40,745 nt of DNA from Coleofasciculaceae cyanobacterium SM2_1_6 (GCA_012031635.1 JAAUUE010000002.1:1-40745); one strand, 5' to 3'; counted from the first letter of the stretch, positions 3,618 through 40,333 are shown. The notes: generated by a model not told the origin, from the letters alone. Translations and numbers: made by a program.

Positions 3618-3766
3618 TTTTAATCTATTTCTTTTAACCCAGATTTTGCTTGCGATTTATACTTCTCTTCTGAATTAGGATGCAGTACCAGGTATGGTCA
3701 ACCCAGAACCCGCAGGGCTTCATGCCAAAGAACCCTTTAATAATTCTTGAAAAAATCTTGTAGTCT

Positions 3767-4983: not shown

Positions 4984-5032
4984 ATGACTGGGCAAAAGGA
5001 TAAAAGTTAATAACAATAATATCCTTCGCAAT

Positions 5033-5509: not shown

Positions 5510-5572
5510 ATTTTATTTGCCTTTTAATTTATCTTTCTAATTTGCTTTAAACTTGCCATATTTGATAGTAAG

Positions 5573-5599
5573 TAAGGGTGCAAGGCTGTGTGCCTCTAC
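5573..5599. repeat. decayed copy of a ~28-bp palindromic dispersed repeat (GTAGGGGTGCAAGG|CCTTGCACCCCTAC type)
   Basis: GTAAGGGTGCAAGGCTGTGTGCCTCTAC here resembles TAGGGGTGCAAGGCTTTGCATCCTC at 37783-37808. Confidence 0.5.
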
Positions 5600-5698
5600 G
5601 ATCGACTTCTCAGACATCCTCTAAGTATTACTAAGAATGTAGAGATAACAAAACAGGCTCAAATAATTTTTATTTAGCTAAAACGTCTATTTTTTATC

Positions 5699-6757: not shown

Positions 6758-6759
6758 TT

Positions 6760-8523
6760 ATGAGACAAGACATCCGCCGGACAAAAATCGTTGCTACCAT
6801 TGGGCCTGCTAGTAGTAGTCCAGAAGTCCTCAAAGCCATGATTGAAGCAGGGGCTACTACCCTCCGGCTTAATTTTTCCCACGGTACTCATGCCGACCAC
6901 GAACGGAGCATCCGCCTCATCCGTCAAATTTCCTTTGAACTCAATCAACCCGTAGGGATTTTACAGGACCTCCAAGGTCCAAAAATTCGTCTGGGGATCT
7001 TTGAAAAAGGTCCAATTACTCTCCAAAAGGGTGATCCCTTTATTTTGACCTCAGAGATGGTACCGGGAACCCAAGAAATTAGCTCTGTCACCTACGAACC
7101 CCTGGTGGAGGAAGTGCCAGTCGGAGCCAATATTCTTCTGGATGATGGCAAGGTGGAAATGCAAGTGGAGTCGATCGATCACCAAAAGCGGCAACTCCAT
7201 TGTCGGGTCGTGGTGGGGGGAGTCCTTTCCAATAATAAAGGGGTTAATTTCCCCGGTGTGTATCTCTCAATTCCGGCGTTGACGGCGAAAGATAAGCGAG
7301 ATCTGACCTTTGGGCTGGATCAAAATGTGGATTGGGTTGCCCTAAGTTTTGTCCGTAATCCCCAAGATGTTTTAGAAATCAAAGAACTGATCGACCACGC
7401 CGGAAAGCAGGTTCCTGTAATTGTCAAGATCGAGAAACACGAAGCGATTGAGGAAATGGAAGCGATCCTCTCCCTCAGTGACGGGGTCATGGTAGCCCGG
7501 GGCGACTTGGGAGTAGAACTGCCCGCCGAAGAAGTGCCGATTCTGCAAAAGCGCCTGATTGCGACTTCTAACCGCCTCGGCATTCCCGTCATTACCGCCA
7601 CCCAAATGCTCGATAGCATGGTTAGTTCTCCTCGCCCCACCAGAGCCGAAATTAGTGATGTGGCAAACGCTATCCTTGACGGTACTGATGCCGTGATGCT
7701 CTCCAATGAAGCTGCTGTGGGGAAATACCCCGTGGAAGCAGTGGCAACCATGGCTCGCATCGCCAACCGCATCGAACAAGAGAAAAACTTCCCCCGCCTC
7801 GATGATAGTCGCCGCAATATTACTAATGCGATTTCCCATGCCGTCGGTCAAATTGCCGAAAGCCTCGATGCTGCTGCTATTATCACCCTGACCAAAAGCG
7901 GAGCCACTGCCCGGAATGTCTCCAAGTTCCGTCCCTACACCCCAATTCTTGCTGTTACTCCCCATGTGGATGTCGCCCGGAGATTACAGCTAGTCTGGGG
8001 AGTGAAGCCTTTGATTGTCCTTGATTCTCAATCTACTGAGGAAGTTTTTGAAACGGCGATCAACCTAGCCCAAGAGAAAAAAATCCTCACCGGGGGCGAT
8101 CTGGTGGTGATGACGGCGGGGACTCTGCCCGGAGTTTCCGGTTCTACCAACTATTTGAAAGTAGATTTAGTCACGGCAGTGTTGGGCAAGGGTGTGGGTC
8201 TAGGCAACGGGGCAGTAAGTGGTCGCGCACGGGTAGCTCGGACAGCGATCGATACGGCAAACTTCCATGCTGGCGATATCCTTGTGGTGCAGACTACCAA
8301 TGCTGATTATGTGGAGGCAATCCGGAAGGCTGGCGGGATTATTACCGAAGATGAAAATGTTACCTGTCATGCGGCGGTAATTGGTTTAAGATTAGGAATA
8401 CCTGTCATTGTGGGGATGAAAGATGCTACAGAAATTATTCATAATGGTGGCATTCTTACCCTAGATGCTCAACGCGGGATAGTTTCTGCCGGAGCTACGA
8501 ACCCGAATGTTAGCAATATTTAA
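6760..8523 (+). CDS. pyk: pyruvate kinase with a C-terminal PEP-utilizer mobile domain
   Basis: The N-terminus reads RRTKIVATIGPAS...LRLNFSHG, followed by MVARGDLGVE and TQMLDSM. The C-terminal extension GRARVA...GDILVV.TTNADY......GGIITE.....HAAVIGLRLGIPVIVG is the swivelling domain. Confidence 0.95.
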   Translation: MRQDIRRTKIVATIGPASSSPEVLKAMIEAGATTLRLNFSHGTHADHERSIRLIRQISFELNQPVGILQDLQGPKIRLGIFEKGPITLQKGDPFILTSEMVPGTQEISSVTYEPLVEEVPVGANILLDDGKVEMQVESIDHQKRQLHCRVVVGGVLSNNKGVNFPGVYLSIPALTAKDKRDLTFGLDQNVDWVALSFVRNPQDVLEIKELIDHAGKQVPVIVKIEKHEAIEEMEAILSLSDGVMVARGDLGVELPAEEVPILQKRLIATSNRLGIPVITATQMLDSMVSSPRPTRAEISDVANAILDGTDAVMLSNEAAVGKYPVEAVATMARIANRIEQEKNFPRLDDSRRNITNAISHAVGQIAESLDAAAIITLTKSGATARNVSKFRPYTPILAVTPHVDVARRLQLVWGVKPLIVLDSQSTEEVFETAINLAQEKKILTGGDLVVMTAGTLPGVSGSTNYLKVDLVTAVLGKGVGLGNGAVSGRARVARTAIDTANFHAGDILVVQTTNADYVEAIRKAGGIITEDENVTCHAAVIGLRLGIPVIVGMKDATEIIHNGGILTLDAQRGIVSAGATNPNVSNI

Positions 8524-8646
8524 TATTTACTTATAATATTTACTTAATTCTGCCCTCGATCGCCATAGCTAATCTGCCGTAGCTAGTAATTCTAATAATT
8601 AGTTATCTAATTTATCTAGTTTTAATTATTTAATCTTTAGTTACCT

Positions 8647-10698
8647 ATGACCAACAGCTTTCCCAATTTTCAGCCCCAAGGCTATCAGGTAATTCGTGAG
8701 TTGGGACACAATCACAATGGTGGACGGGTTACTTATCTGGCGATTAACCTAGAGGCAAACGCCCCTGCAATCCCTGAGCCAAACCAGAGTGCCTGCGCTG
8801 AGCGGAGCCGAAGCACCAGAATTGAACTGAGCCAAAGCGCCTGCGCTGAGCCAACCCAGAGCGCCTACGCTGAGCCAAACCAGAGCGCCTGCGCTGAGCG
8901 AAGCCGAAGCGTCGTCATTAAACATTTCCAACTCCACCAATCCTCTAGTTGGTCTGGCTACGGGGCGATCGATCGAGAAATTCAAGTCCTCCAAGGCTTG
9001 AACCATCCGGGCATTCCCCGCTATCTAGATTCCTTCCCCACCGAAACCGGGTTTTGCCTCGTCCAAGAGTACAAACAAGCCGAATCCCTTGCCCAAGCCC
9101 GGAGTTTTGCCCCAGAGGAAATTAAACAGATTGCCGTCGGCTTACTCGAAATTTTGGTCTATCTCCAGCAGCGCTTACCCTTTGTCAGTCATCGAGATAT
9201 TAAACCAGAGAATATCCTCGTAGATGGGGATTTACGGGTTTTTCTGGTGGATTTTGGGATTGCCAAAGTGGGACTAGGGGAAGCAACTACGGGCACTGTG
9301 GCTAAGGGAACTCTGGGGTTTATGGCTCCAGAGCAGTTATTTAATCGGGAAGTGACAGAAGCCTCGGATCTCTATGGTGTGGGGGCTACCCTGATTTGTT
9401 TGGTGACGGGGACAAAATCTAGTGAGATTACCGATTTAATTGATGACCATTACCAGCTAAATTTTCAGCATTTGGTTCCCCAGTTGAGCCTGCGTTGGTT
9501 GGAATGGCTAGAACGGATGGTGACGCTCCTGCCCAAGTATCGTTACCGTAACGCCGCCGAAGCTCTGGCTGCCTTGGAGCCGATCTATGTCACCAGAACC
9601 CCAGAGATTGTGTGCAGTGAGGATGTATTGGAATTTCGGGCCGAAAAACTGGGGCAGAAAATTACCCAGTATTTAACAATTCATAATTTCGTTCCCGAAA
9701 CTACCTTGCGGGGTTCCTTAGCGATCGCTCCCCATCACCACGATCGAGATAATTATTTAAATAATTTGCATGATTTAAATAATTTGCATGATTTAGATAA
9801 GCGTGATCCCAATTATGCTCCAGACTACGATCTTAAGCATGATCTTAACGATGCTCAATCCCGGTTTCCATCTCAGCATAGTTGGATTCGCCTGCCTTAT
9901 ACTGAGTTGAATGGGAATCGATCGATGGTCAAAATCACCGTAGATACCAGCAAGTTAATGGCGGCGGCTCTCTACGAGCGGGAGTTAGAAATCATGAGTA
10001 ATGCTAGTCCCGCAGTCCAAAGGGTAAAAATTCGGGTGAAAACAGCACCGATCCCCGTCCCCACCAAGAAATTACCCGCCCTGTCTTTATTTCTCCTCGT
10101 ATCCTTGGGGGTGATCGCTGCTTGGCTAGAGGCGATCGCTTGGGGAACAATCATTCAAAAGCACGGCAGTCTTGGCTTGGCAGTGGCGTTATTTATTACC
10201 ATGATTATTGCCTTGTTTGGAGGCATGATGGCGATCGCTGGGAATTTATTAACGAATTTTATTGGGAAGATTCGCCGCCAGTTGAAGATTTCCTACCAAC
10301 AAATTGATGAAATTTTAGTCTTTACCCTCGCCAGTGGGGCGGCATTTTCTGCGGCTCAGTTTGGTAGTTTTTTCCGGGAAGAAGCGGTGTCGATCGCTGC
10401 CCTCGCCATGGTAGATGCGGCAGTATTTATGACCATGTTTATTACGGGTAAAATTATTAAAATCAACCGCCAAAAAGGGTTTAATCAAATAATTTCTTTG
10501 GTGGTGACGCTCCTGTGTTTGGGCTTGGGGATCAGCATTGGTCTGGGGACAAAGTTGGGTTGGGGTAATCCTTGGGTGCTGGGAGCGATCGCCGCCACAA
10601 CTATTCCCCTCGCCGGAATTTTCTTCTACCCGCCCCTTGAGCGAAAGTACCGGATCGATCGCTACCGTCAAAGCGAACGCCATCTGATCTCTCCCTGA
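8647..10698 (+). CDS. Ser/Thr protein kinase with a C-terminal multi-TM domain
   Basis: The Hanks kinase motifs VVIKHF (catalytic Lys), HRDIKPENILV, DFGIAK and GTLGFMAPE are present. The C-terminal ~200 aa contain several hydrophobic helices. Confidence 0.85.
   Translation: MTNSFPNFQPQGYQVIRELGHNHNGGRVTYLAINLEANAPAIPEPNQSACAERSRSTRIELSQSACAEPTQSAYAEPNQSACAERSRSVVIKHFQLHQSSSWSGYGAIDREIQVLQGLNHPGIPRYLDSFPTETGFCLVQEYKQAESLAQARSFAPEEIKQIAVGLLEILVYLQQRLPFVSHRDIKPENILVDGDLRVFLVDFGIAKVGLGEATTGTVAKGTLGFMAPEQLFNREVTEASDLYGVGATLICLVTGTKSSEITDLIDDHYQLNFQHLVPQLSLRWLEWLERMVTLLPKYRYRNAAEALAALEPIYVTRTPEIVCSEDVLEFRAEKLGQKITQYLTIHNFVPETTLRGSLAIAPHHHDRDNYLNNLHDLNNLHDLDKRDPNYAPDYDLKHDLNDAQSRFPSQHSWIRLPYTELNGNRSMVKITVDTSKLMAAALYERELEIMSNASPAVQRVKIRVKTAPIPVPTKKLPALSLFLLVSLGVIAAWLEAIAWGTIIQKHGSLGLAVALFITMIIALFGGMMAIAGNLLTNFIGKIRRQLKISYQQIDEILVFTLASGAAFSAAQFGSFFREEAVSIAALAMVDAAVFMTMFITGKIIKINRQKGFNQIISLVVTLLCLGLGISIGLGTKLGWGNPWVLGAIAATTIPLAGIFFYPPLERKYRIDRYRQSERHLISP
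8774..8910. repeat. dispersed-repeat insertion (GAGCCAAACCAGAGCGCCTGCGCTGAGCG(G/A)AGCCGAAGC units) kept in frame inside the kinase N-lobe
   Basis: The near-identical units encode PNQSACAERSRS...SQSACAEPTQSAYAEPNQSACAERSRS. The GAGCGGAGCCGAA core recurs at 38345-38415 in non-coding DNA. Confidence 0.7.
9759..9794. repeat. 18-bp in-frame tandem duplication (NNLHDL x2) in the kinase linker
   Basis: AAATAATTTGCATGATTT occurs at 9759-9776 and again at 9777-9794. Confidence 0.9.
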
Positions 10699-10726: not shown

Positions 10727-11056
10727 TTAAGCGATCACAATTTTTGTTTGAGCCGGAAATTCTGGTCTAGGTTTAGGAATAACCCGAATTTCTACATCAC
10801 TGCCGAGAGCATTCAAGAATCTAAAAAGCCGCTCAGTTGAGAACCCAGAAAGTTTCCCATGTAAGAGAGCAGAAACTTTAGGCTGATCAATCCCCAGAAT
10901 ATTTGCTACTTCAGTTTGAGTTAAGTTTCTAGCATTAATCAAGCTACTAATTTGTCGGACAAGTTCGGCTTTAATCAACAATTCATCAGGATTTGCCAAT
11001 CCTAAATCTGCAAAAACATTACCACTAGTAGCCTGTACCTTAATTTTCTCACTCAT
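10727..11056 (-). CDS. XRE-family HTH antitoxin (HigA-like)
   Basis: The HTH reads LTQTEVANILGIDQPKVSALLHGKLSGFSTERLFRFLNALG. It lies 2 nt downstream of a Gp49/RelE-like toxin gene. Confidence 0.8.
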   Translation of the reverse strand: MSEKIKVQATSGNVFADLGLANPDELLIKAELVRQISSLINARNLTQTEVANILGIDQPKVSALLHGKLSGFSTERLFRFLNALGSDVEIRVIPKPRPEFPAQTKIVIA

Positions 11057-11058
11057 TT

Positions 11059-11439
11059 TTAACTATCCTCTAAACGCTGTTTGTGGTACTGAGCGTAATG
11101 CTCCTTCGCTCGTTTTAGCCGTGTCTCGATCACTTCCATATCTTGTTTTGGGGTGGCAATTCCATGCTTAGATTTCTTCTGAAATGCATGTAGCACATAC
11201 ACAACTTCTTCAAATTTAATTGTGTACACTGCTCGATAAGTGTCCCCATCATAATCCTGAATAACTTCCAGAACAGAGGATCCTTTAAATCCCTTGAGTG
11301 GTTTTACCCTTAGATGTTTTTCGCCACATTGTGCCAGATAAAGTGCATACCCCACTGATTGTTGAACATCTTCTGGAAATTCCTTCAAATCGTCAAGGGA
11401 ACTAGCAATCCATTCAATTGGCTTTGGATAGGAGTTCAT
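11059..11439 (-). CDS. type II toxin, RelE/ParE superfamily (phage Gp49-like / HigB-type)
   Basis: The motifs W...S.L.DL..FP..V....G..L...Q.G......KPLKGF...VLE......G..YR.VYT..F...VYVLH.FQKKS are typical of Gp49-like toxins. The toxin-first order with an XRE partner supports the call. Confidence 0.8.
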   Translation of the reverse strand: MNSYPKPIEWIASSLDDLKEFPEDVQQSVGYALYLAQCGEKHLRVKPLKGFKGSSVLEVIQDYDGDTYRAVYTIKFEEVVYVLHAFQKKSKHGIATPKQDMEVIETRLKRAKEHYAQYHKQRLEDS

Positions 11440-20425: not shown

Positions 20426-20601
20426 ATCTAAGTCTAGGATGAGGGCAAAACGGAAAAAAGCGGCTTGGGATATTGCTTATCTAAGTCATCTTCTGTCCCT
20501 TTGATTTTTATGCAGTTGCCCTGATATCAAAATGGCTGGCTAAGCTTAGAAATTAGTAAGATGCTATTATCAAAATCAGATAGTACTACCGAATACTTAC
20601 T

Positions 20602-20862
20602 ATGCCTCTTATCGAACTCCTACCAACCGTTAGTCAACTGACGCATCAAGATAAGCTCCGACTTATTCACTTCCTTTTGCTTGCAATTGCTAGAGAGGAA
20701 GGATGTAGCCTAGAAACTGCTCATAATCAACATTATGAAAATACCCTGATGAAGCAACTAGCGATTACTGAAGCTGTTGTATGGTCACCTCAAGCCGATC
20801 ATAAAGCGGTTCAAGCCTTGTCAGACCTTTTAGTTGCAGCACAGGGTGTATCGAATGCTTGA
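20602..20862 (+). CDS. small helical protein, first gene of protease module 1 (paralog of 23988..24209)
   Basis: It shares the N-terminal motif (L/P)xxQL(T/S)HxDKLxLxxFL with the ORF at 23988..24209. It overlaps the downstream protease gene by 8 nt (ATGCTTGA). Confidence 0.5.
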   Translation: MPLIELLPTVSQLTHQDKLRLIHFLLLAIAREEGCSLETAHNQHYENTLMKQLAITEAVVWSPQADHKAVQALSDLLVAAQGVSNA

Positions 20863-21274
20863 TGGTCATCGTTTTTCATTTACAGAAAAGACTGATAGTT
20901 CTGGTCGCTCTAGCATCTTGCCATACTTACCACTAACCTTGACTAATGGAAAACGTTCAATTGAGGTTATGGCTTTATTGGACACTGGTGCTAGTGTTAA
21001 TGTCTTACCCTACGAAATTGGGTTACAAATGGGAGCAGTCTGGGAAAATCAAACTGTTCAAGTTCCCTTAAGTGGAAACCTTGCTCATAGTGAGTCACGG
21101 GGACTCGTTTTGACCGGGAAAGTTGCACATTTCCCACCTGTTTTACTCGCCTTTGCATGGACTCAAGCAACAGATGTACCAGTAATTTTAGGTCACATGA
21201 ATTTTTTTGCGGAATTCAACGTGTGTTTTTATCGCCATGAGTTAGCTTTTGAGATTTGCCCACTCCAAACATAA
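20855..21274 (+). CDS. retropepsin-like (clan AA) aspartic protease
   Basis: LPYLPLTL.....IEVMALLDTGASVNVLP contains the catalytic D-T-G. The protein is small (~139 aa), as is typical of bacterial retropepsin-like proteins. I prefer the ATG at 20855. Confidence 0.7.
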   Translation: MLDGHRFSFTEKTDSSGRSSILPYLPLTLTNGKRSIEVMALLDTGASVNVLPYEIGLQMGAVWENQTVQVPLSGNLAHSESRGLVLTGKVAHFPPVLLAFAWTQATDVPVILGHMNFFAEFNVCFYRHELAFEICPLQT

Positions 21275-21353
21275 AGTGTTGCTAACCCACCCGCAGCATA
21301 ACTAGATCTTTAGTACGAAGTGATTAATCAAAAGCTTTCTATATAACATATCG

Positions 21354-21403
21354 TATAGGGCAGATAACCAGAAACTTGACATTCAGCCTATCTGCCCTAT
21401 AGT
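21354..21403 (+). promoter_or_regulatory. near-consensus sigma70-type promoter (TTGACA-16 nt-TATAGT) embedded in a 13-bp perfect inverted repeat
   Basis: TATAGGGCAGATA (21354-21366) pairs with TATCTGCCCTATA (21389-21401). TTGACA lies at 21376-21381 and TATAGT at 21398-21403. No ORF follows for about 350 nt. Confidence 0.4.
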
Positions 21404-21598
21404 CAGATTAGGCAGAAAAATTCCGTCTAATACATAGTTAGACTTTAGTCCCTAGTTTCCGATCGATTATCGGTCAAGGATCAGCATCAGCAAGCAGAGA
21501 CTTATTAGTTTAATCCATCAGTTTGGGTGAGTCGATTCGCTTTGCGATCCCTGCGGGAATCGAGCGATCGACCAAGTCAAGTTAGCGAGGGTTGGCTT

Positions 21599-21685
21599 GT
21601 CTAACACTTCATTGCAGCGGACGGTTGGGCGATCGTTTGTTGAGTGTTAAAATCTAATCACCGCCGCTGAACTTCACCGTTAGGC
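21599..21685 (+). other. 87-bp imperfect palindrome A with attC-like outer boxes (GTCTAAC ... GTTAGGC)
   Basis: GTCTAAC (21599-21605) fits RYYYAAC and GTTAGGC (21679-21685) fits GTTRRRY. The inner stem is CAGCGG-a-CGGT / ACCG-CCGCTG with a bulged A. The block between the outer box and the stem does not pair well. It shares TGCAGCGGA, CCGCTGA and ACCGTTAG with element B. Confidence 0.4.
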
Positions 21686-21762
21686 GGCTCAAGGTTATCT
21701 GTGGGGGCGCAGCCGAAAGACCATTAGTGTGACACTTCAATCACAATCAGAAATTGCCTGGT

Positions 21763-22838
21763 ATGGGACACGTTTTCAAGCCAAGTACAATACCGACTGT
21801 TGACGAGTACGTGTCGGGTTTATCTGCAATTCGTTCTCGTATCAGTGAGTCGCAGTTTCGTTTGCTGCAAGAGCAGTATTATGCTCCAAATCGTACTACT
21901 ACAGCGACCCAACTTGCAGAGTTAATAGGGATTGAGAGTGGGCGTGGAGCGATCAATCTGATGTATGGTTGGCTAGGGCGCTTATTCTGTGAAGCAACAG
22001 GGTTTGAGCCGAGTCAGCGAGAAGTTGGCACACATCGCTGGTGGTCTGTGTGGTCTAGCGGATATGAAGAGCGCAATCCCTATCGTTTTTTTGGAAGATG
22101 CACCCAGAAGTTGCTGAAGCTTTAGAACATTTAGGTTGGGTGAGTTCTAATTCGGCAATAAGTCGCTATCAGCAAATTTTTAGTGAATTAGTTTATGAGC
22201 GAGACGATCGTAGTCCTCCCGATGCCCGAAGGCAGGCACAATTTAAGATTGGTTGGGAAAACGCCGCCATGCAAAGGAGAACTTATACAAGTGAAACTTT
22301 AAATTCAGTTCTTACTTGGAATAATTTGGGCTATCGCTTTGGGCTGAAATTAGGACAGTGTTCTAATTCGGAAATTCAAGCAGCTTATGACTTTTTAGCT
22401 CAAGAATATCAAATCAATTCCTCTGGCTCAAAGCAGCTAAATATAACCAATATTTATCCTGATGAGGTGGCTTCAGAGGAGATTTTTCGAGAAGGGTCAG
22501 TACGTCAAGTTTCAGTTAATGCCTATGAGCGAGATCCTAAAGCACGCCAGAAGTGCATCGATTATTATGGCTTAAGTTGCTCAGTTTGCAGTTTTAATTT
22601 TGGTGAGTTCTTTGGAGAGTTAGGTGAAGGCTTTATCCATGTTCACCACTTACGCCCTATTTCAGAGATTGCCAAAGAGTATGAAGTTGACCCCGTAAAA
22701 GATTTACGCCCAGTTTGCCCAAATTGTCACGCTATGATTCATCGCCGTTCTCCACCACTGAGTATTGAGGAGCTTCAAGTTTTGGTGAGAAATTCTAAAG
22801 TTCAACCGCCTCCTAACAATTCGGGTGCAGCGGATTGA
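21763..22838 (+). pseudogene. HNH endonuclease (COG3183-like HNH at the C-terminus, unknown N-terminal domains), split by a 1-nt frameshift in a T7 run
   Basis: ORF 21754..22125 ends ...ERNPYRFF and ORF 22098..22838 begins MHPEVAEALEHLGW. An eighth T in the run at 22086-22092 would give YRFFWKMHPEVAEAL. The C-terminus reads NAYERDPKARQKCIDYYG.SCSVC.FNF....G..G.GFIHVHHL.P......EY.VDP..DLRPVCPNCHAMIH. Confidence 0.8.
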
Positions 22839-22897
22839 CCGAAGCCGCTTGGGGGAGATGCAAAGATCACGGCAACCGCTGACCCGAACCGTTAGAT
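22811..22897 (+). other. 87-bp imperfect palindrome B with attC-like architecture at the 3' end of the HNH gene
   Basis: The sequence is TCCTAAC aa TTCGGGT g CAGCGG a TTG a CCG [28-nt loop] CGG CAA CCGCTG ACCCGAA cc GTTAGAT. About 24 bp pair in five blocks. Three single-base bulges all lie on the 5' arm. A 2x2 unpaired spacer follows the outer boxes. The outer boxes match RYYYAAC at 6/7 and GTTRRRY at 7/7. Confidence 0.5.
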
Positions 22898-22982
22898 TGA
22901 TTAGAATGCTAGACGCTTTGGGAAAATTACGATGAGGACGATCGCCGATCTTGTAGGATACATTAATGAAATGTAATGCGCC
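22891..22982 (+). repeat. 92-bp island junction repeat, copy 1
   Basis: GTTAGATTGATTAGAATGCTAGACGCTTTGGGAAAATTACGATGAGGACGATCGCCGATCTTGTAGGATACATTAATGAAATGTAATGCGCC is about 89% identical to copy 2. Confidence 0.9.
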
Positions 22983-23075
22983 TTATCTTCATTATTAACA
23001 AAAGCAATCTATTCAGAGCGATTTCTGGTTAGCTATAATGTCGGATAAGGCAGTAATTAAGGAAAATTTACAATC

Positions 23076-23348
23076 ATGGCAGTTCGTCAACCCCGCTATA
23101 GTAAAGAAGAATTTGCCCGAAGAGGCGATCTCATTTATCAAACGCAAATACGCCCACAAGTTGAGGCAGGTAATCATGGCAAAATTGTAGCGATCGACAT
23201 TGAGACTGGAGACTTTGAAATTGATGCTCATGAAATCACTGCCTGCGATCGGCTCGAAGCCCGTCATCCAGATGCTCAAGTCTGGATTGTTCGAGTCGGT
23301 TCTCACCATGTTCGCCGATTTGGTGGACGCACAAAGAGAGCAGTATGA
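23076..23348 (+). CDS. small hypothetical protein, first gene of protease module 2
   Basis: A 90-aa ORF with a TATAAT box at 23035-23040 upstream. It overlaps the downstream protease ORF by ATGA. I recall this type of partner next to clan AA proteases in cyanobacteria. Confidence 0.55.
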   Translation: MAVRQPRYSKEEFARRGDLIYQTQIRPQVEAGNHGKIVAIDIETGDFEIDAHEITACDRLEARHPDAQVWIVRVGSHHVRRFGGRTKRAV

Positions 23349-23722
23349 TCACAGGAATTGTTAATGCCGATTTTGAGGCGATTATCTCGCTTTCGATATG
23401 CGGCTCTGATGGAAAAATTCACGCATAAGATGCGGTTGTTGATACAGGCTTTAACGGTTGGCTTTCATTGCCTCCAGACCTAATTGATCATTTGCATCTC
23501 AAATGGAAAAGACGGGGACGCGCTATTCTTGGAGATGGTAGCGAATGCGTTTTTAATATCTATGAAGGCGTTGTAATGTGGGATGGAGATTATCTGACTA
23601 TCCCCATTGATGAAGCTGATTCGGAACCTCTTGTGGGAATGTCATTGATGGAAGGCTATCAACTCACAGTTCAAGTATTTGAAGCAGGTATCGTAGAAAT
23701 CCGAAAAGTAAGCGCTGTCTAA
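23345..23722 (+). pseudogene. clan AA aspartic protease (DTGF type) with an in-frame TAA at 23426-23428
   Basis: The translation reads MITGIVNADFEAIISLSICGSDGKIHA*DAVVDTGFNGWLSLPPDLIDHLHLKWKRRGRAILGDGSECVFNIYEGVVMWDG.... The stop lies just before the catalytic DTG, and the frame continues into ORF 23468..23722. Confidence 0.7.
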
Positions 23723-23729
23723 CTAGATC

Positions 23730-23821
23730 GTGAGATTGATTAGAATGCTAGACGCTTTGGAAAAATTACGATAAGGACGATCGCCGATCTTGTAGGCTGT
23801 ATTAATGAAATACAACGCACC
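23730..23821 (+). repeat. 92-bp island junction repeat, copy 2
   Basis: GTGAGATTGATTAGAATGCTAGACGCTTTGGAAAAATTACGATAAGGACGATCGCCGATCTTGTAGGCTGTATTAATGAAATACAACGCACC is preceded by GTCTAAC-TAGATC (23717-23729). Confidence 0.9.
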
Positions 23822-23839
23822 TCTTTTTTTCCAGCTAAA

Positions 23840-23995
23840 CTATAAAACATTCACACTAGAGCCAGTGTCCAAAAGTCCTGAAACACTCAGGGATTGATTT
23901 TGATACATTAATGTCAATGGTAAATAAGGAAGCGTACTTAATGCTCCAAGACTGGGATTTACCTCAGTGAAAGCAAATCTTACTTTATTAGCCAT
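23840..23995 (-). pseudogene. 3'-truncated retropepsin-like protease (51 codons), second gene of protease module 3
   Basis: The minus-strand translation MANKVRFAFTEVNPSLGALSTLPYLPLTLMYQNQSLSVSGLLDTGSSVNVL* parallels the first third of the 20855..21274 product. It stops about 18 nt from the end of repeat copy 2. Its start overlaps the upstream gene by ATGGCTAA. Confidence 0.6.
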
Positions 23996-24209
23996 GAGTC
24001 AATTCTTGCTTCTCTTTTAATGCTTGAGCAAGAATGGCGGCAGCCTCAAAAGAGTCATGTAAACCTTGTCTAGGCAGGTCATCTTGGATAGATAGGGGTA
24101 CAATACCAGAATCTTTGAGCAACTCCGCTACAAGAAAGTTAAGTAATAAAAGTTTATCAGAGTGAGACAATTGCCTAAGCAGGGGAACAAATTCAGTAGT
24201 TGTCAGCAT
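23988..24209 (-). CDS. small helical protein, first gene of protease module 3 (paralog of 20602..20862)
   Basis: MLTTTEFVPLLRQLSHSDKLLLLNFLVAELL aligns with MPLIELLPTVSQLTHQDKLRLIHFLLLAIA. Confidence 0.55.
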   Translation of the reverse strand: MLTTTEFVPLLRQLSHSDKLLLLNFLVAELLKDSGIVPLSIQDDLPRQGLHDSFEAAAILAQALKEKQELTHG

Positions 24210-24309
24210 AGATTTTAAGAAAACTATAGATTTTGATCTCTTTTACTCCGCCCCAGTATAACACTACCTTCGTGCTAACCCTTATCCATGAAAGCCGTCT
24301 AACTAGACC

Positions 24310-24355
24310 GTTAGATTGATTAAAATACTAGACGCTTTGGAAAATATGGTTAGCA
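24310..24355 (+). repeat. island junction repeat, copy 3 (5' 46 bp only)
   Basis: GTTAGATTGATTAAAATACTAGACGCTTTGGAAAAT is preceded by GTCTAAC-TAGACC (24297-24309) and then diverges. Confidence 0.8.
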
Positions 24356-24359
24356 TCTA

Positions 24360-24380
24360 TTGATCCCATTTTGGGATCAA
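24360..24380. promoter_or_regulatory. perfect 9-bp inverted repeat (TTGATCCCA ttt TGGGATCAA) next to a TATTAT box, a candidate higBA operator/promoter
   Basis: Read directly. It lies 17 nt upstream of the higB ATG, with TATTAT at 24383-24388. Type II TA operons are typically autoregulated at palindromic operators. Confidence 0.4.
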
Positions 24381-24396
24381 GCTATTATTTAGGCGT

Positions 24397-24690
24397 ATGC
24401 GTATCTTGTCCCGTAGCACCCTACGAAATTTCTGGGAGACTCATCCAGATGCCGAAGAAGCACTGAAGACTTGGTACTACGAAGCGTCTCATGCTAATTG
24501 GCAGAGTCCAGTTGATGTTAAGGCTGCTCATAGTAGTGCCAGTATCGTTGCGAACAACCGTGTGGTTTTCAATATCAAAGGCAACACCTATCGGTTAATT
24601 GTGGCAATTCGTTATGACATTGGTATTATTTTTATTCGATTTATTGGCACTCATGCTGAGTATGACAAAGTAGATGCAGAAATAATATGA
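24397..24690 (+). CDS. higB: type II toxin HigB (mRNA interferase, HigB_toxin family)
   Basis: MRILSRSTLRNFWETHPDAEEALKTWYYEA..ANW.SP.DVKA...SASIV.NNRVVFNIKGN.YRLIV.I.Y......IRFIGTHAEYDKVDAE closely matches the family consensus as I remember it. Confidence 0.9.
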   Translation: MRILSRSTLRNFWETHPDAEEALKTWYYEASHANWQSPVDVKAAHSSASIVANNRVVFNIKGNTYRLIVAIRYDIGIIFIRFIGTHAEYDKVDAEII

Positions 24691-24704
24691 ATGGAGGCTA
24701 ATGT

Positions 24705-25082
24705 ATGGAGATACGTCCAATTAGAACACACACCGATTACCAGCAAGCTCTTCAAGAGATTGAGCTATTGTTTGATGTAGCCCCAAGTACACCCGAACAA
24801 GATCGACTAGATATTCTCAGTACTCTGGTAGAAGCTTATGAAAAGAAACACTTTCCAATTGAGTTACCTGATCCGATCGAAGCAATTCATTACTACATGG
24901 ACACCCGTGGGTGGTCTCGACGTGATTTGGAGCCATGTCTAGGCAGTCGAGCCAGAGTATCTGAGGTTCTATCTCGTAAACGTTCATTGACCTTAGAGAT
25001 GATTCGGAAACTGCATCAAGAGTTGGGAGTTCCTGCTGAGATTCTCATTCAGCCTTATGAGTCGGCACAAATCCCTGCCTAA
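24705..25082 (+). CDS. higA: HigA-type HTH antitoxin
   Basis: IRT..DYQQAL.EIE.L.D..P.TPE.DRLD.L.TLVEAYE.KH.PI..PDPIEAI...M...G.SR.DLEP.LGSRARVSEVLSRKR.LTLEMIRKLH..LG.PAE.L is the canonical partner of HigB. Confidence 0.9.
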   Translation: MEIRPIRTHTDYQQALQEIELLFDVAPSTPEQDRLDILSTLVEAYEKKHFPIELPDPIEAIHYYMDTRGWSRRDLEPCLGSRARVSEVLSRKRSLTLEMIRKLHQELGVPAEILIQPYESAQIPA

Positions 25083-25085
25083 TCA

Positions 25086-25172
25086 TTCTGATGAGAATAC
25101 TAGACGCTTTGGAAAATTATGAGGAGGACGATCGCCGATCTTGTAGAGTATGTTAATGAACTGTAACGCGCC
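25086..25172 (+). repeat. island junction repeat, copy 4
   Basis: TTCTGATGAGAATACTAGACGCTTTGGAAAATTATGAGGAGGACGATCGCCGATCTTGTAGAGTATGTTAATGAACTGTAACGCGCC starts 4 nt after the higA stop. Confidence 0.85.
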
Positions 25173-25191
25173 TCATGTCTATTTATGTAAT

Positions 25192-25851
25192 TTAATTGTT
25201 GAGCTGTTCTCTGACCCATTGGCGGACATGGCGCATTAAACTTTTTTCGCCCACAGTTTGACTAAGTTCCAAAAATGACCTCAGCACAACAGCATCAAAC
25301 CTTGGCAACACCATGGAAACTTCCCTGGGTTGATATCCTTGGTCTCCTAAACTCCAAATCGTTAAGCTATCACGATCGCACTGCCATACCTCCATCACTC
25401 CCAAAGCCGCATAGATTCCTAGCCGATTCATAGAACTACTAGTGTGATCAACCTCGATCGCTAAATCGGGAGGCGGATCAATAGTTAGATCGATTACATC
25501 CTTACCACGCACTGCTAACTCGTTTTGAATGTAATAGCACTCATCCGCTTCTAAACCCTTGCGTAGGTCTTCTCGTGTCCAAGTTGTTGAACCTAAACTA
25601 CAAATTTCAATCCCTAATTCTTCTGTCATCACTTCCACAAAACGACCAAGTAGTTTTTTATAGCGTTCGTGGGGGGGTAGTAGCCTGAGAATCTCCAAAA
25701 TTCCGTCATCATAAGTTAATCGCATTCCCGGTTGCGATGCCAAATCCTGTACCAAATTCTGATAAGTACCCCATTGAATCCCGGAAAGAATAGTTGTATT
25801 GATGGGAAATGGTTGTGCCAAATTCGAGTTAGAGGCGATCGCAGCAACCAT
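25192..25851 (-). CDS. Uma2-family (DUF820) endonuclease
   Basis: W..Y..L.......R..Y.DG.LEI....P.HE........EV...ELG.......STT........G.E.D.CYY........PPDLAIEV..TSSS..RL.IYA.LGV.E.W shows the PD-(D/E)XK-like Uma2 pattern. Confidence 0.85.
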   Translation of the reverse strand: MVAAIASNSNLAQPFPINTTILSGIQWGTYQNLVQDLASQPGMRLTYDDGILEILRLLPPHERYKKLLGRFVEVMTEELGIEICSLGSTTWTREDLRKGLEADECYYIQNELAVRGKDVIDLTIDPPPDLAIEVDHTSSSMNRLGIYAALGVMEVWQCDRDSLTIWSLGDQGYQPREVSMVLPRFDAVVLRSFLELSQTVGEKSLMRHVRQWVREQLNN

Positions 25852-26001
25852 AGTTTTCTCCTTGATCTAGAGATTTTTGTTTTTTGAGCTATGCACTTAA
25901 TCTTAATTTGATTTTGAACCAGAGAGGATCGATCGCTACTCTAGGCTTAAGGATTTCTAGTTGTAAATTATGGTTTAAAATCCGACGATAATTATCAATA
26001 A

Positions 26002-26184
26002 AACGTCAGTTCAGGGTAAGAAATACCCCTCATCCCCAACCCCACTTCGACAAGCTCAGTGCATCGCTTCGCCCATAAGGGGCGTTAGGCATAAGACTTC
26101 CCGAAGGGTAGGGGAGTAAGACGAAATTTTCTTGTTCCCTCTCCCAGAACGGGGGAGGGTTCCAGTTTATCCCAAACTCACGTT
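26002..26184. mobile_element. MITE-like long imperfect palindrome (outer arms AACGTCAGTTCAGGGTAAGAAA / TTTATCCCAAACTCACGTT; C-rich/G-rich inner arms)
   Basis: The outer arms are approximately reverse-complementary. The inner CCCCTCATCCCCAACCCC ... GGGGAGTAAGA ... CCCTCTCCC..GGGGGAGGG blocks are shared with the element at 34797-34934. There is no coding capacity. Confidence 0.5.
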
Positions 26185-26273
26185 AATAAAATAGACTTCT
26201 TGCCTGAATCCATTTTTGGTATGATTTTCTAATAGTTTGATATACATAATTTACTATTCACGCAGGAGGTCTA

Positions 26274-34934: not shown

Positions 34935-35235
34935 TTATTTCATTCCATTTTTGTTTATGTTCAATGATTTAGGATCGCTATAGAAGTAGATGATTGATAT
35001 TTGGTGACAAAGGTAGCCATCGACAGCATCCGGTCAAGCAAGGCAAGGTGACGGCATCAGGCAAGATGAGTGATGATGTCAGAAAAAAATTTAGCAAGTA
35101 TTCTTAGACAGGCGGGGATTGAAATCATGGATAAGTATCTGATTGTTTTAGAAAAAAGGGAAACTGGTTTTTCGATAATCATTGCAGAGCTGTTAAGACA
35201 GTTAGCATAGAAATTTGAGACTAGAGACTAGAAAT

Positions 35236-35667
35236 ATGGAAGAGTTGTTAGAACTACGGACGCTATTAATGGGGGGGAATATCTCCGAGGCTTTGCTGTT
35301 GGTGGAGGAGATGACCGAGATGAGCAAAGATGACAAAATCAATAAGATATCTAGCTTTAGTATTATTTTGCTAATGCATTTAATTAAACAGCAAGCTGAG
35401 AAACACTCAACCCGATCGTGGGATGTGACTATTCGGAATGCTGCTCGCCAAATTCAACGATCGAATAAACGCCGGAAGGCAGGGGGCTATTATCTTTCAT
35501 CGGCAGAATTATTAGAAACCTTAACCGATGCTTATGAATCTGCCTTGGATGCTGCTGCCCTAGAAGCCTTTGGGGGGCACTATGAATCGGCGGAGTTGGG
35601 GGCTATGGTCGATCAAGAGGGCATAATTCAAGAGGCGATCGCCTTAATTCTGGAAATTGAAAATTAG
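35236..35667 (+). CDS. distant DUF29-like protein
   Basis: The central HLIKQQAEKHSTRSWDVTIRNAARQIQR parallels HLLKWQYQPEKRSKSWRVTIKEQRREIR of the DUF29 array. The size is similar (~144 aa from the ATG at 35236). Confidence 0.45.
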   Translation: MEELLELRTLLMGGNISEALLLVEEMTEMSKDDKINKISSFSIILLMHLIKQQAEKHSTRSWDVTIRNAARQIQRSNKRRKAGGYYLSSAELLETLTDAYESALDAAALEAFGGHYESAELGAMVDQEGIIQEAIALILEIEN

Positions 35668-35764: not shown

Positions 35765-37120
35765 CTAATTATTGGTATCAGTGAAGTTAATTTGATCGCT
35801 GAGTTGGCGGATGAGATTACCGATTTCTGGGTCGTTGTCCCGGAGTTGGGCGACTTTTTCGCAACTGTACATCACCGTCGTGTGATCTTTGCCCCCGAAC
35901 TCTTCCCCAATTCTTGGCAGACTGAGATCCGTGTGTTGCCGCATTAGGTACATGCCCACCTGCCTTGCCCAGCTAATTTCTCGACGGCGGGAGTGACTTT
36001 GGAGTTCTTCGAGGGAAATATTAAAAGTAGAAGTAATGGCTTTGATCACCGCTTCGGGGGAAGTCGCTACTCGATCGATGGACGGGTTAAGAATGGGTGT
36101 GATACTATCCACATTCATGGGCATTCCCGAAATTGAAACGTAGGCGACCGCCCGGATCAAGGCTCCTTCTAGCTCCCGGATATTAGAAGTGTAGTTGGTG
36201 GCGATGTATTCGATCACTTCCCGTGGCAGGCGCATATTTTCGTATTCAGCCTTTTTCTGGAGAATCGCCATGCGAGTTTCTAGGTCTGGAGCTTGAATAT
36301 CAGCAATCAGACCCATAGAAAACCGGGAACAGAGACGTTCTTGGAGGCGGGGGATGCGGCTGGGGGGGCGATCGCTGGCGAGGATGATTTGTTTACCAGC
36401 TTCATGGAGGGTATTAAAAGTATGAAAAAATTCTTCTTGGGTGTATTCTTTGCCCTCAATAAATTGAATATCATCCACCATAATTAGATCCGCCGCTCGG
36501 TAATGTTCCCGAAACTTCTGCATACTATCTTTACGAATGGCAGCAATTAAATCATTGGTAAACTGTTCTGTAGACACATAGAAAATCTTTGTATCGGGGG
36601 AAATTTGGAGCCGATAGTGACCGATCGCCTGCATCAGATGAGTCTTTCCCAAGCCCACGCCGCCACAGAGGAATAACGGGTTAAATTCCCGCCCCGGCGA
36701 CTCCGCTACCGCCAAGGAAGCCGCATGAGCCATGCGATTATTTGCCCCGACTACAAACCGAGAAAATACATACTTAGAATTTAACTTTGTAGCGGGGGAT
36801 AATTGTTGTTGGGGATGCTCTTCAATTACTGGGTTGGCAACTTGATTTAGCTCCAAAGATCCATCATTATCTGCTACCGTAAACCGAATTTCTAGGGATT
36901 TTCCCAAAACATCATACACCACGCCAGAAATGGTTTTTAAGTAATGCTTCTGTAGCCAATTTTTTGCAAAGGGATTGGGAGTCCGAATTACCAAACATTG
37001 GTCATCGAACCTTTCGGCACTAGCAGTCCTAATCCATGTTTCAAAAGTGGGTTGACTAAGTTGAAGTTGCAGGCGATCAGAGACTTGCTGCCACAACTGT
37101 TCTGGAGAGATATCGGTCAT
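35765..37120 (-). CDS. dnaA: chromosomal replication initiator protein DnaA
   Basis: The N-terminus LWQQV...L...LS.PTFETWI, the Walker [16 protein letters not shown], and the C-terminal DNA-binding region R..I...[21 protein letters not shown] are present. The ATG at 37120 gives the canonical start. Confidence 0.95.
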
Positions 37121-37182
37121 TTTTCTGGCTAGGCGGATTCTGCTACAATAGGCTACTAAATATAGCACCTTTTTCTCTAAGG

Positions 37183-37710
37183 ATGTCCAAGATATCAGAA
37201 ATTATTCACCTCGGTAATCCTCTCCTCCGGGAAGTAGCGAAACCAATACAAAAGATAGAGGATCCCAGTCTGCAAAATCTCATCCAAGAGTTGATCAGCA
37301 CTACGATCGACCACAACGGTGTGGGTATTGCTGCCCCTCAAGTTGCCCAGTCTCTACAATTGATCATTGTTGCCTCCCACCCTACTCCCCGCTATCCCCA
37401 AGCCCCCCAGATGGAGCCGATCGCCATGATCAATCCCCGCATTGTTAACCACAGTGGCGAGCCAGAGAAGGGCTGGGAAGGATGCCTGAGCGTGCCGGGA
37501 ATTCGGGGATTGGTTCCTCGTTATCCGCAAATTGTAATTGAATATACAGATATTCATAATCAAGTTTGCTGCCAAGAATTAACTGGGTTTGTGGCGAGAA
37601 TTTTTCAACACGAGTATGATCATCTCCAAGGGATAGTTTTTCTCGATCGAGTGGAAAGCACCCAAGAAATGATTACAGAACAAGAATATCAGAAGTTATT
37701 TACTGAGTAA
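37183..37710 (+). CDS. def: peptide deformylase
   Basis: The motifs [17 protein letters not shown] and QHEYDHLQG are present. Confidence 0.9.
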
Positions 37711-38329: not shown

Positions 38330-38425
38330 ACAGTTACTCGTACTGAGCGGAGTCGAAGTATCAGTGAACAGTGAACAGTTATCAATTACTTGTATTGAGC
38401 GGAGCCGAAATATCAATGATCACAG
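38326..38425. repeat. two tandem, diverged copies of a ~45-bp dispersed repeat (CAGTGAACAGTTA..T(C/T)GTA(C/T)TGAGCGGAG(T/C)CGAA(G/A)TATCA), with a CAGTGAA heptamer duplication
   Basis: Read directly. The GAGCGGAGCCGAA core is the same as in the kinase insertion at 8774-8910. Confidence 0.6.
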
Positions 38426-38432
38426 TAAATCT

Positions 38433-38885
38433 ATGGAAAGTAGTTTGTATGAGGCGGATTTTTATAGATGGACGATCGAGCAATCCCAGTTTTTACAGTT
38501 GGGGAAGTTTGATGCTTTAGATTTGGAAAACCTAGCAGAGGAGATCGCATCTTTGGGGAAGCAACAACGGCAGGAACTTAGAAACCGATTGGGAGTATTG
38601 ATTGGGCATTTACTAAAGTGGCAGTATCAACCAACCAGAAAGACTCGCAGTTGGCAGTTAACTATTGAATTACAAAGATCGGAAATTGAAGAACTATTGA
38701 TGGATAACCCTAGTTTAAAACCCTATTTAGTTGAGGTAATTCCCAAAGCCTTTAAGTTGGGATTATCTCTAGTATTTATGGAAACTCCCTTAAAAAAACG
38801 AGATATTCCTTCTAATTGTCCTTATACTTTAGAGCAAATTTTAGATGAGAATTTTCCTGATGATATTGATAGAGACTTTGATTAA
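38433..38885 (+). CDS. DUF29 protein, array copy 1 (subtype A)
   Basis: LYEADFYRWTIEQSQFLQLGKFD.LDLENLAEEIASLGKQQRQELRNRLGVLIGHLLKWQYQP fits DUF29. The ATG at 38433 gives the 150-aa size shared by the paralogs; the ORF-track start at 38364 would read through the repeat. Confidence 0.8.
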   Translation: MESSLYEADFYRWTIEQSQFLQLGKFDALDLENLAEEIASLGKQQRQELRNRLGVLIGHLLKWQYQPTRKTRSWQLTIELQRSEIEELLMDNPSLKPYLVEVIPKAFKLGLSLVFMETPLKKRDIPSNCPYTLEQILDENFPDDIDRDFD

Positions 38886-38911
38886 TCTAGTATTAACATA
38901 GAGTGTGAATT

Positions 38912-39364
38912 ATGACATCAAAACTATATGAAATAGATTTTCATGGGTGGACGATCGAGCAATCCCAGTTATTAGAATTGGGGAAGTTTGATGGGTTAGA
39001 TTTAAGCAACTTAGCTGAGGAGATCGCATCTTTGGGCAGACAGCAGCGACAAGAATTAGAGAACCGTTTGGCTATTTTATTGGGGCATTTTCTCAAGTGG
39101 ACTTTACAGCCAGAGCTACGAGGTAAAAGCTGGAAGTTGACAATTAAGGAGCAACGCAGACAAATTCAAAGATTGATCAAAGGCAATCCTAGCTTAAAGC
39201 CCTATTTATCAGAAGCAATTATTGAAGGTTATGCCTCAGCTTTAATTTTAGTTGCTCAAGAAACTCCTTTTAATTACCAAGATTTACCTCAAGAATGCTC
39301 TTTTAAGATTGATCAGATTTTTGATGAGAAGTTCCCTGACGGTATAGAAATAGAACCTTACTAA
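38912..39364 (+). CDS. DUF29 protein, array copy 2 (subtype B)
   Basis: LYEIDFHGWTIEQSQLLELGKFDGLDLSNLAEEIASLGRQQRQELENRLAILLGHFLKW..QPELRGKSW. Confidence 0.85.
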   Translation: MTSKLYEIDFHGWTIEQSQLLELGKFDGLDLSNLAEEIASLGRQQRQELENRLAILLGHFLKWTLQPELRGKSWKLTIKEQRRQIQRLIKGNPSLKPYLSEAIIEGYASALILVAQETPFNYQDLPQECSFKIDQIFDEKFPDGIEIEPY

Positions 39365-39399
39365 AACTTGAATAAGCCCTGAATAAAAAGTTATAAATT

Positions 39400-39852
39400 A
39401 TGACATCACAACTATACGAAACCGATTTTTATAGATGGACGATCGAGCAATCTCAGTTTTTACAATTGGGCAAGTTTGATAGGTTAGATTTAAGCAACTT
39501 AGCAGAGGAGATCGCATCTTTGGGGAAGCAACAACGGCAGGAACTTAGAAATCGATTAGGTGTATTGATTGGGCATTTACTGAAATGGCAATATCAGCCA
39601 GCAAAAAGAACCCGGAGTTGGCAGGTAACTATTAGTTTGCAACGGCGAGAAATTAGAGACATCTTAGCTGAAAATCCTAGTTTACAACCTTATTTAGATA
39701 CAGCGATTCAAGCAGGTTTTTCCCTAGGTATAGATTTAGTCTTAATAGAAACTCCCATTAAGAAAAAAGATTTACCTACAGAATGTATTTATACGGTGGA
39801 GCAAATTCTTGATAGTAATTTTCCTGATGGGATTGAAACAGAGTTTGATTAA
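39400..39852 (+). CDS. DUF29 protein, array copy 3 (subtype A)
   Basis: The N-terminal ~65 codons are nearly identical to copy 1 at the nucleotide level, while the C-terminal half has diverged. Confidence 0.85.
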   Translation: MTSQLYETDFYRWTIEQSQFLQLGKFDRLDLSNLAEEIASLGKQQRQELRNRLGVLIGHLLKWQYQPAKRTRSWQVTISLQRREIRDILAENPSLQPYLDTAIQAGFSLGIDLVLIETPIKKKDLPTECIYTVEQILDSNFPDGIETEFD

Positions 39853-39883
39853 GTTGATTAGGTTGATTAGATTGGGTTGAATT

Positions 39884-40333
39884 ATGGTATCAAAATTATA
39901 CGAAACCGATTTTTATAGATGGACGATCGAGCAGTCCCAGTTTTTACAATTGGGCAAATTTGATGATTTAGATTTAGAAAACCTAGCAGAGGAGATCGCA
40001 TCTTTGGGCAGACAAGAAAAGCAAGAATTAAGAAATCGATTAGGTATCTTAATTGGGCATCTACTTAAATGGCAGTATCAGCCCGAAAAGCGGAGTAAAA
40101 GTTGGCGAGTAACGATTAAAGAACAACGGCGAGAAATTCGGTTAATTATCGATGATAATCCTAGCCTGAAGCCCTACCTTGAAGAAGCAATTTTCCGGGG
40201 CTATGCCCAAGGGTTAGATTTAGTAGTGAAGGAAACGCCCCTAGATTATCGAGATTTACCTAAAGATTGTCCCCTTAGCGTAGAGCAGATTTTTGATCCT
40301 AACTTTCCGCCGGGACTAGAAACAGAATTTTAG
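39884..40333 (+). CDS. DUF29 protein, array copy 4 (subtype A)
   Basis: LYETDFYRWTIEQSQFLQLGKFDDLDLENLAEEIASLGRQEKQELRNRLGILIGHLLKWQYQPEKRSKSW. Confidence 0.85.
   Translation: MVSKLYETDFYRWTIEQSQFLQLGKFDDLDLENLAEEIASLGRQEKQELRNRLGILIGHLLKWQYQPEKRSKSWRVTIKEQRREIRLIIDDNPSLKPYLEEAIFRGYAQGLDLVVKETPLDYRDLPKDCPLSVEQIFDPNFPPGLETEF

Follow-up and report, generated by a model that had tools for sequence, protein, structure and literature searches.

A probable decayed integron without integrase in a gene-module island of a Microcoleus-like cyanobacterium

The window, a stretch of 40,745 nt from Coleofasciculaceae cyanobacterium SM2_1_6 (GCA_012031635.1 JAAUUE010000002.1:1-40745), contains an island of small gene modules flanked by housekeeping genes (ABC-F, alpha/beta hydrolase, secA, psbU, proC and dnaA). 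Its source is a filamentous, Microcoleus-like cyanobacterium; the nearest public genome was a Microcoleus metagenome-assembled genome (locus L003), with an ABC-F protein 98% identical to that of the window (87% at the DNA level). An exact look-up of the window proteins in public assemblies returned no record. A first reading, made without database searches (the sequence-only reading), had described the island as seven modules separated by one co-oriented junction repeat and had likened it to an integron cassette array. Open reading frame (ORF) calls and a Pfam run on all window ORFs of at least 100 aa agreed with the modules and gene orientations that it listed, with matches to HigB_toxin, HTH_3, Uma2, HNH and, weakly, Asp_protease_2. 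Here we describe two integron attC sites in the left part of the island, S1 and A, together with a probable attI-like site (block b), and weigh what they mean for the other junctions, several of which carry a different repeat, D1. Coordinates are collected in Table 1.

S1 and A are true attC sites of integron type. Each measures 87 nt from box to box, within the attC length criterion of 57-141 bp, and their boxes fit the inverse-core/core consensus of integron attC sites given in PMC12901181 (RYYYAAC / GTTRRRY), except that the inverse core of A starts with T instead of a purine. Both form imperfect hairpins, with arms TT[G]CAGCGG[A]CGG / CCGCCGCTGAA in S1 and TTCGGGT[G]CAGCGG[A]TTG / CAACCGCTGACCCGAA in A; site A reads TCCTAAC AATTC GGGT[G]CAGCGG[A]TTG ... 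CAACCGCTGACCC GAACC GTTAGAT. The bracketed extra G and A belong to the 5' (R''-L'') arm, and the blaVIM-2 and dfrA5 attC sites of class 1 integrons have theirs in the same places. The two hairpins are related to each other, not to D1. DNA folding compared with shuffles gave z scores of -3.7 (+ strand) and -4.1 (- strand) for site A and only about -1.1 for S1. At the orthologous site of L003, the structure was kept through many compensatory changes.

Covariance models singled out the same two sites. Model R1, built from three cyanobacterial sites only (S1, A and the L003 orthologue), scored S1 at 89.8 bits and A at 96.1 bits and strongly matched nothing else in the window. With model R2, made of 16 related cyanobacterial sites, the scores were 86.5 bits (E 9e-20) for S1 and 85.6 bits for A, and these were the only real matches in the whole window. 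In the alignment of the 16 sites, which was model-fitted and thus favours structure, 89.4% of cells were paired, as compared with 26-42% when the partners were slid, and the 63 double-sided changes were matched by none of 500 shuffles.

Model R1 also recognised attC sites of class 1 integrons. A 60-nt attC sequence of aadA genes was found exactly in about 2000 plasmids and, in R100, directly after aadA1 in the intI1-aadA1-qacEdelta1 integron; this aadA1 attC was the top R1 match on the R100 locus (33 bits, E 3.5e-8). On 90 kb from six further class 1 loci, the six best matches were all true attC sites on the correct (cassette) strand, namely those of blaVIM-2, aadA2, dfrA5, an orfD-like gene, aadB and aac(6')-Ib, and no other match fell below E 0.5. 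The likeness can be read in the sequences themselves: site A and the aadA1 attC (R100 In2) have the boxes CTAACAATTCG and CGTTAGAT in common, and the arm TTGCAGC(C/G)GAC...G(G/C)CTGAACTTC is common to S1 and the blaVIM-2 attC. Unlike the class 1 sites, S1 and A have a loop of the size expected for an 87-nt site, containing a lineage-conserved motif (TTGAG...AAAG.TTA), and are found on a cyanobacterial chromosome without a linked integrase. Among the class 1 loci, a group II intron (ltrA) was observed inside a cassette attC of an integron on a Raoultella plasmid (L168, 4198-5547).

S1 and A, both on the + strand, are separated by 1.2 kb and enclose one cassette. This cassette (cassette 2) carries the HNH endonuclease gene; the preceding one, which begins with the TT of the block b core and ends with the G of the crossover box of S1, has no notable ORF. 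Applying R1 to 79 loci with relatives of the HNH protein revealed co-oriented sites in several genera, and attC sites followed homologous HNH genes in four of the loci (L128, L120, L136 and L139) and, weakly, in L127. Over 80 nt, site A and the attC that follows the Nodosilinea homologue (L128) share 90% identity, compared with only 73% for the genes, and the homology stops at the R' core box; we therefore conclude that gene and attC travel together as a cassette. Similarly, homologues of the island proteases in L089, L091 and L135 each have an attC about 40 nt downstream. In L089 (Synechococcaceae cyanobacterium SM2_3_1), five co-oriented attC sites (4640-10228) belong to an array at 3693-10228, between valS and an ABC1 kinase gene, whose cassettes include Uma2 followed by an attC, HTH plus HNH, and an aspartic protease. 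Just upstream, on the opposite strand, is a 65-aa N-terminal intI fragment with 42% identity to the N terminus of IntI1, for which the best family was the integron integrase TIGR02249 (E 5.9e-16). As this fragment stands beside an attC array, L089 is a decayed integron.

Block b, at the left end of the array, is a candidate for its attI site. It contains a 20-nt inverted repeat (85% complementary, 21354-21373/21382-21401) and a near-consensus promoter-like sequence, TTGACA-16-TATAGT (11/12, 21376-21403), directed into the array, and it ends with GTCTAAT (21425-21431), ACATA and GTTAGAC (21437-21443). Twelve of the 14 attI1-derived positions in its core are equal to those of the attI1 simple site of R100, CTAAAACAAAGTTA. 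On the + strand of the window the pattern CTAAY-N5-6-GTKAG occurs three times, always in the island, against 0.55 occurrences expected. Three copies of block b are known, one in the window and two in L003 (b1 and b2); they are conserved up to GTTAGRC and unrelated beyond it. Scans of genome and metagenome contigs returned no further copies of block b. Its position and sequence indicate that block b is probably the attI-like site of the array.

Comparison with L003 was in agreement with this role. In the window, block b is followed by the ORF-less cassette with S1, the HNH cassette with A, and D1; in L003, it is followed by a PIN-like cassette with its own attC, D1 and Uma2. The cassette-wise polymorphism that the sequence-only reading had suggested looking for between related strains was thus observed, and the points of difference coincide exactly with the G|TT crossover boxes. 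Whole-cassette differences between a constant left block and a constant right flank are what insertion at attI predicts. The L003 island has two direct copies of block b (7677-7765 and 9878-9958), the right one truncating Uma2 and lying 35 nt upstream of a short-chain dehydrogenase gene. The position of the island is not a general hotspot, because R1 found nothing at E <=0.4 in 80 ABC-F loci of other cyanobacteria (1.39 Mb) except the orthologous site of L003.

The window has no recombinase gene, as the sequence-only reading had stated: Pfam on all ORFs of at least 100 aa and tblastn with IntI1 were both negative over the 40.7 kb, and tblastn with the L089 IntI fragment gave no match in the window. 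Clusters of attC sites that have no integron integrase (CALIN) are defined as two or more attC sites within 4 kb, on the same strand and away from any integron integrase (Cury et al. 2016, PMC4889954). Two co-oriented attC sites 1.2 kb apart without intI therefore make this array a CALIN. With regard to a complete integron, the 40.7 kb lack an intI beside the array; as candidates for attI and cassette promoter, block b offers its attI1-like core and the TTGACA-16-TATAGT sequence, a scheme into which the extra copy in L003 does not fit. Similarly to other CALIN and sedentary chromosomal integrons, the array has small cassettes whose function is unknown or of the addiction type. It differs from them in having just two intact sites, the other junctions being eroded or non-attC, and in probably retaining an attI-like platform with its promoter without the integrase. 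Most published CALIN also have no recognisable intI pseudogene, and cyanobacteria are among the phyla known to carry integrons (PMC4889954).

D1 is a direct repeat of about 94 nt, present in 3.5 copies (A to D) that are 84-92% identical. Copies A, B and C and the copy in L003 all start exactly at the crossover/core box (GTTAGAT); at junction C the repeat is partial (24294-24344, the first ~35 nt only), and copy D is 87% identical to the L003 copy, an identity that extends into Uma2. The sequence-only reading had placed one related sequence at every module boundary, always in the + orientation. The orientation held for all D1 copies, whatever the direction of the genes, and D1 was found at four boundaries, whereas S1 and the left part of 22811-22982 are attC sites unrelated to it. 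Two degenerate members of the proposed family did not stand up: the segment 20540-20580 scored 17 against the repeat, the shuffle mean being 17.0, and is at chance level, and that at 21281-21340 is weak, since the similarity of its scar to junctions B and C was reached by 34 to 66 of 2000 shuffles. The segment 25075-25172 contains D1 without recognisable core boxes.

Junctions B and C share the core GTCTAAC-TAGAYC-GTKAGAT, a bare 7-6-7 arrangement confined to the island. One D1 core word had four matches in the window at up to one mismatch, plus two unrelated matches with three mismatches (0.62 expected); a second had three exact matches (0.00 expected). Neither word occurs in the window outside the island. 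The B/C core resembles what would be left of an attC stripped down to its pair of boxes, or else the L and R boxes of an attI. Neither model recognised these junctions as attC sites. For junction B, the sole match was with R1 (23660-23739, 12.4 bits, E 0.29), sharing GTGAGAT on the R' side and absent from the R2 list; for junction C, R1 gave 14.6 bits (E 0.07) and R2 9.9 bits (E 2.9), through the boxes only in both cases, and a local hairpin had a fold z of -3.1. Up to E 10, R2 listed none of junctions B, D, 21281 and 20540, and the 21281 scar had no match with R1 either. D1, the ~94-nt repeat on which the sequence-only reading relied, is neither an attC nor the recombination site; it was scored by no attC model and has no conserved fold. 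The non-attC junctions are at best truncated attC sites or attI-like cores.

The 3' third of D1 is a decayed cyanobacterial terminator-like hairpin, TGTAGGGTGYGTTA..TAACGCACC, of a type found in L147, L154 and L123. This type (TGTAGGGTGCGT...ACGCACC, often with a T run; L147 15216-15272, L154 11562-11596, L123 ~150-210) recurs 3' of unrelated genes in Pseudanabaena, Dolichospermum and another cyanobacterium, and looks generic and terminator-like. The 5' part is lineage-specific: a scan of 185,579 species genomes gave a single copy, at the orthologous locus of L003, and the metagenome contigs gave none. The pattern used in the first D1 scan spanned a variable 7-nt insertion and matched two unrelated genomes only. 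D1 was rejected as a structured RNA (consensus fold of -4.3 kcal/mol, no compensatory pair, no Rfam match), as a covarying hairpin, which in the right register is the decayed generic terminator hairpin, and as a coding sequence, its short frames being broken in L003 by a 7-nt indel. In the island, Rfam gave no family at the gathering threshold (the window gave two tRNAs, both elsewhere) and nothing notable at E up to 5. Promoter-like and terminator-like sites were not enriched in the island overall.

Several genes of the island are damaged. In the HNH gene, two overlapping ORFs result from a -1 frameshift within a T7 run (22086-22092), and the L126 homologue is one 351-aa ORF; the split gene is either a pseudogene or the product of a homopolymer sequencing error. 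The protease-like gene of module 2 had no Pfam match and has an in-frame TAA at 23426-23428, just 5' of its DTG motif; it is probably a pseudogene. The protease ORF of module 3 matches residues 1-51 of the L089, L091 and L135 proteases, their N-terminal third, and stops about 17 nt from the end of D1 copy B. Its truncation by a repeat end had been noticed before and was confirmed; the broader idea that the repeats mark rearrangement breakpoints found support in this gene and nowhere else. The frameshift, the stop codon and the protease cut to 51 residues indicate that the array is eroding. Further right, the homology of higA with L123 stops at 25091, and R2 found no attC on the right-hand side of the Uma2 module (25852-26270). 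A G/C-tract element, CCCCTCATCCCCAACCCC ... GGGGAGGG (26030-26165), separates Uma2 from the hydrolase gene; it contains GTTAGGC (26083) without an attC-like hairpin. Outside the island, a second addiction-type pair (Gp49, HigB-like, and an HTH_37 antitoxin) was seen at 10727-11439 on the - strand, as were five DUF29 genes (35215-35667 and 38364-40333), four of them head to tail with short spacers, adjoining dnaA (35765-37168, -) and def (37183-37710).

Table 1. Features of the island, in order of position in the window.
Feature	Position	Strand	Remarks
Module 1	20602..21274	+	86-aa ORF 20602-20862; retropepsin-like aspartic protease 20834-21274 (Asp_protease_2, weak, 0.006)
Truncated attC-like scar after module 1	21281..21315	+	TGCTAAC..GCAGCATAAC-TAGATC-TTTAG
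Block b, probable attI-like platform	21356..21443	+	88 nt; left of array
Cassette 1, includes attC S1	21438..21679	+	No notable ORF; limits inferred from box positions
attC S1	21598-21688	+	R'' GTCTAAC 21599-21605; R' GTTAGGC 21679-21685
Cassette 2, HNH endonuclease and attC A	21680..22891	+	HNH gene 21754-22838 (Pfam HNH 5.9e-5)
attC A	22810-22900	+	R'' TCCTAAC 22811-22817; R' GTTAGAT 22891-22897
D1 copy A	22890-22983	+	Starts at R' of attC A; ends in decayed terminator-like hairpin
Module 2	23076..23722	+	90-aa ORF 23076-23348; protease-like probable pseudogene 23345-23722, DTG motif read from sequence
Junction B	23717..23830	+	Core GTCTAAC (23717-23723), TAGATC, GTGAGAT (23730-23736); D1 copy B 23729-23822, T7 tail
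Module 3, inverted	23840..24209	-	73-aa ORF 23988-24209; protease N-terminal 51 aa at 23840-23995
Junction C	24273..24345	+	TGCTAAC 24273-24279; core GTCTAAC 24297-24303, TAGACC, GTTAGAT 24310-24316
higB and higA	24397..25082	+	higB 24397-24690, higA 24705-25082; Pfam HigB_toxin 2.8e-33, HTH_3 (HigA)
D1 copy D	25080..25173	+	No recognisable core boxes; orthologue of single L003 copy
Uma2-family gene, inverted	25192..25851	-	Pfam Uma2 2.1e-16

Taken together, we consider it likely that the island is a decayed chromosomal integron without integrase, a CALIN, whose left end probably carries an attI-like platform. Such an origin is supported for 21356-22897, where two attC sites and one cassette bear out the integron/CALIN array of the sequence-only reading; for the rest of the island, where five of the seven junctions it proposed are not attC sites, the same origin would be plausible. 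We hypothesize that an integron integrase, encoded elsewhere in the genome or since lost, inserted and removed circular cassettes by cutting between the G and the TT of the GTTRRRY box. The attC sites would be used as folded single strands, with strand and orientation set by their extra bases, and this would account for junctions that are co-oriented whatever the orientation of the genes. To the right of the last crossover point, here and in L003, lies D1. The protease pairs and the higBA and Uma2 modules each have a D1 leader, and their limits are marked by a bare 7-6-7 core or lack any recognisable sequence; they may be cassettes of an unusual type, in which a truncated attC or an attI-like site took the place of a full attC, and which were duplicated and eroded afterwards. 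Since the window encodes no integrase, present-day activity of the array is unproven.

Two families of known elements come close to these remaining modules. Mobile integrons are known to contain cassettes that have a truncated attC or a delta-attI, according to the part of PMC12901181 that summarises Partridge 2009. Junctions B and C are comparable in having only an inverse-core box, 6 nt of spacer and a core box; they differ in that each core is followed here by a D1 leader and that the spacer is not the one found in the local attI-like block.

The superintegron of Vibrio cholerae contains toxin-antitoxin cassettes, some of them inverted and with their own promoters, flanked by intact and homogeneous attC sites (VCRs). 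The island similarly has a higBA-type addiction module in a cassette array with some genes inverted, the difference being that the higBA module has no intact attC.

Several results weigh against an integron origin of the whole island. The 40.7 kb contain neither an integrase nor an intI pseudogene. Only S1 and A pass an attC model, and B, C, D and 21281 fail. A leader of about 94 nt shared by several cassettes is abnormal for integrons, and our account of it is conjectural; the TAGAYC spacer of the B and C cores is not the ACATA of block b. A simple attI model would not lead one to expect block b again at the right end of the L003 island, and the likeness to attI1 was observed post hoc. Finally, an arms-only model of nine class 1 attC sites matched S1 (12.9 bits, E 0.5) and A (9.7 bits, E 3.7) weakly, a result that is not decisive because this model is narrow, with a fixed short loop.

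We regard a more restricted integron origin as a possible, though clearly less favoured, explanation. Only 21356-22897 would then be integron-derived, and the D1 junctions would have arisen by segmental duplication and by homologous or illegitimate recombination among selfish toxin-antitoxin-like modules, with D1 as passenger DNA made of a -10-like box and a generic terminator hairpin. The 84-92% identity of the D1 copies would make such duplications old, and the silence of the attC models on D1, the lack of a conserved fold and the wide occurrence of its 3' hairpin in cyanobacteria (L147, L154, L123) are all consistent with a passenger sequence. The modules have promoter-like sites of their own (23012-23039 and 24360-24388), and a protease gene is cut at the end of a D1 copy. 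Segmental duplication alone does not readily explain that D1 starts exactly at the crossover box in A, B, C and L003, that B and C have an integron-type 7-6-7 core found nowhere else in the window, or that all D1 copies share one orientation although gene orientation varies. As regards the origin of D1, decayed attC sites, a duplicated attI-like unit and plain segmental duplication are all possible.

The 7-6-7 core and D1 could also form a functional, double-stranded attI-like recombination site, with three R-type boxes 9 bp apart (GTTAGAT, ATTAGAA and CTAGACG), and the modules between copies would then move as cassettes using this site instead of attC. A, B, C and L003 all retain the core and the three boxes, the stretch CTAGACGCTTTGG is invariant in five of five D1 copies, the core pattern is confined to the island, and cassettes bounded by attI or delta-attI work with IntI1 (PMC12901181). 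We nevertheless find this unlikely: there are five copies only, in two genomes, with no more in the species genomes or metagenome set; no recombinase is nearby; copy D has no core; gene decay argues against recent mobility; and no polymorphism was observed at these sites. In its strongest form, the core (L box, 6 nt, R box) with two further R-type boxes would be a site that replaces attC in this lineage, and the protease, higBA and Uma2 modules would be attI-type cassettes served in trans by a distant integrase, which seems improbable to us. Cyanobacterial genomes are rich in dispersed repeats and the 3' hairpin of D1 is generic, but a dispersed intergenic repeat or miniature transposable element unlinked to module boundaries is very hard to reconcile with a D1 core pattern that is island-only in the window, a single further copy among species genomes, at the orthologous locus, none in metagenome contigs, and the lack of terminal inverted repeats; the sequence-only reading had itself named a genome-wide intergenic repeat as grounds for giving up its proposal, and D1 occurs at this locus only, in the window and L003.

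The decayed integron that we favour is no new kind of system, as integrons, CALIN and degenerate attC sites have all been described already. What it adds concerns the genes: the Uma2, retropepsin-like protease and HNH families, which abound in filamentous cyanobacteria, move about as integron cassettes, since the same genes each come with an attC in several genera and one of the arrays stands by an integrase remnant. A PIN-like gene was seen as a cassette in the related genome L003 only. A locus that shows whole-cassette differences between two related genomes is a natural test bed for cyanobacterial integron activity.

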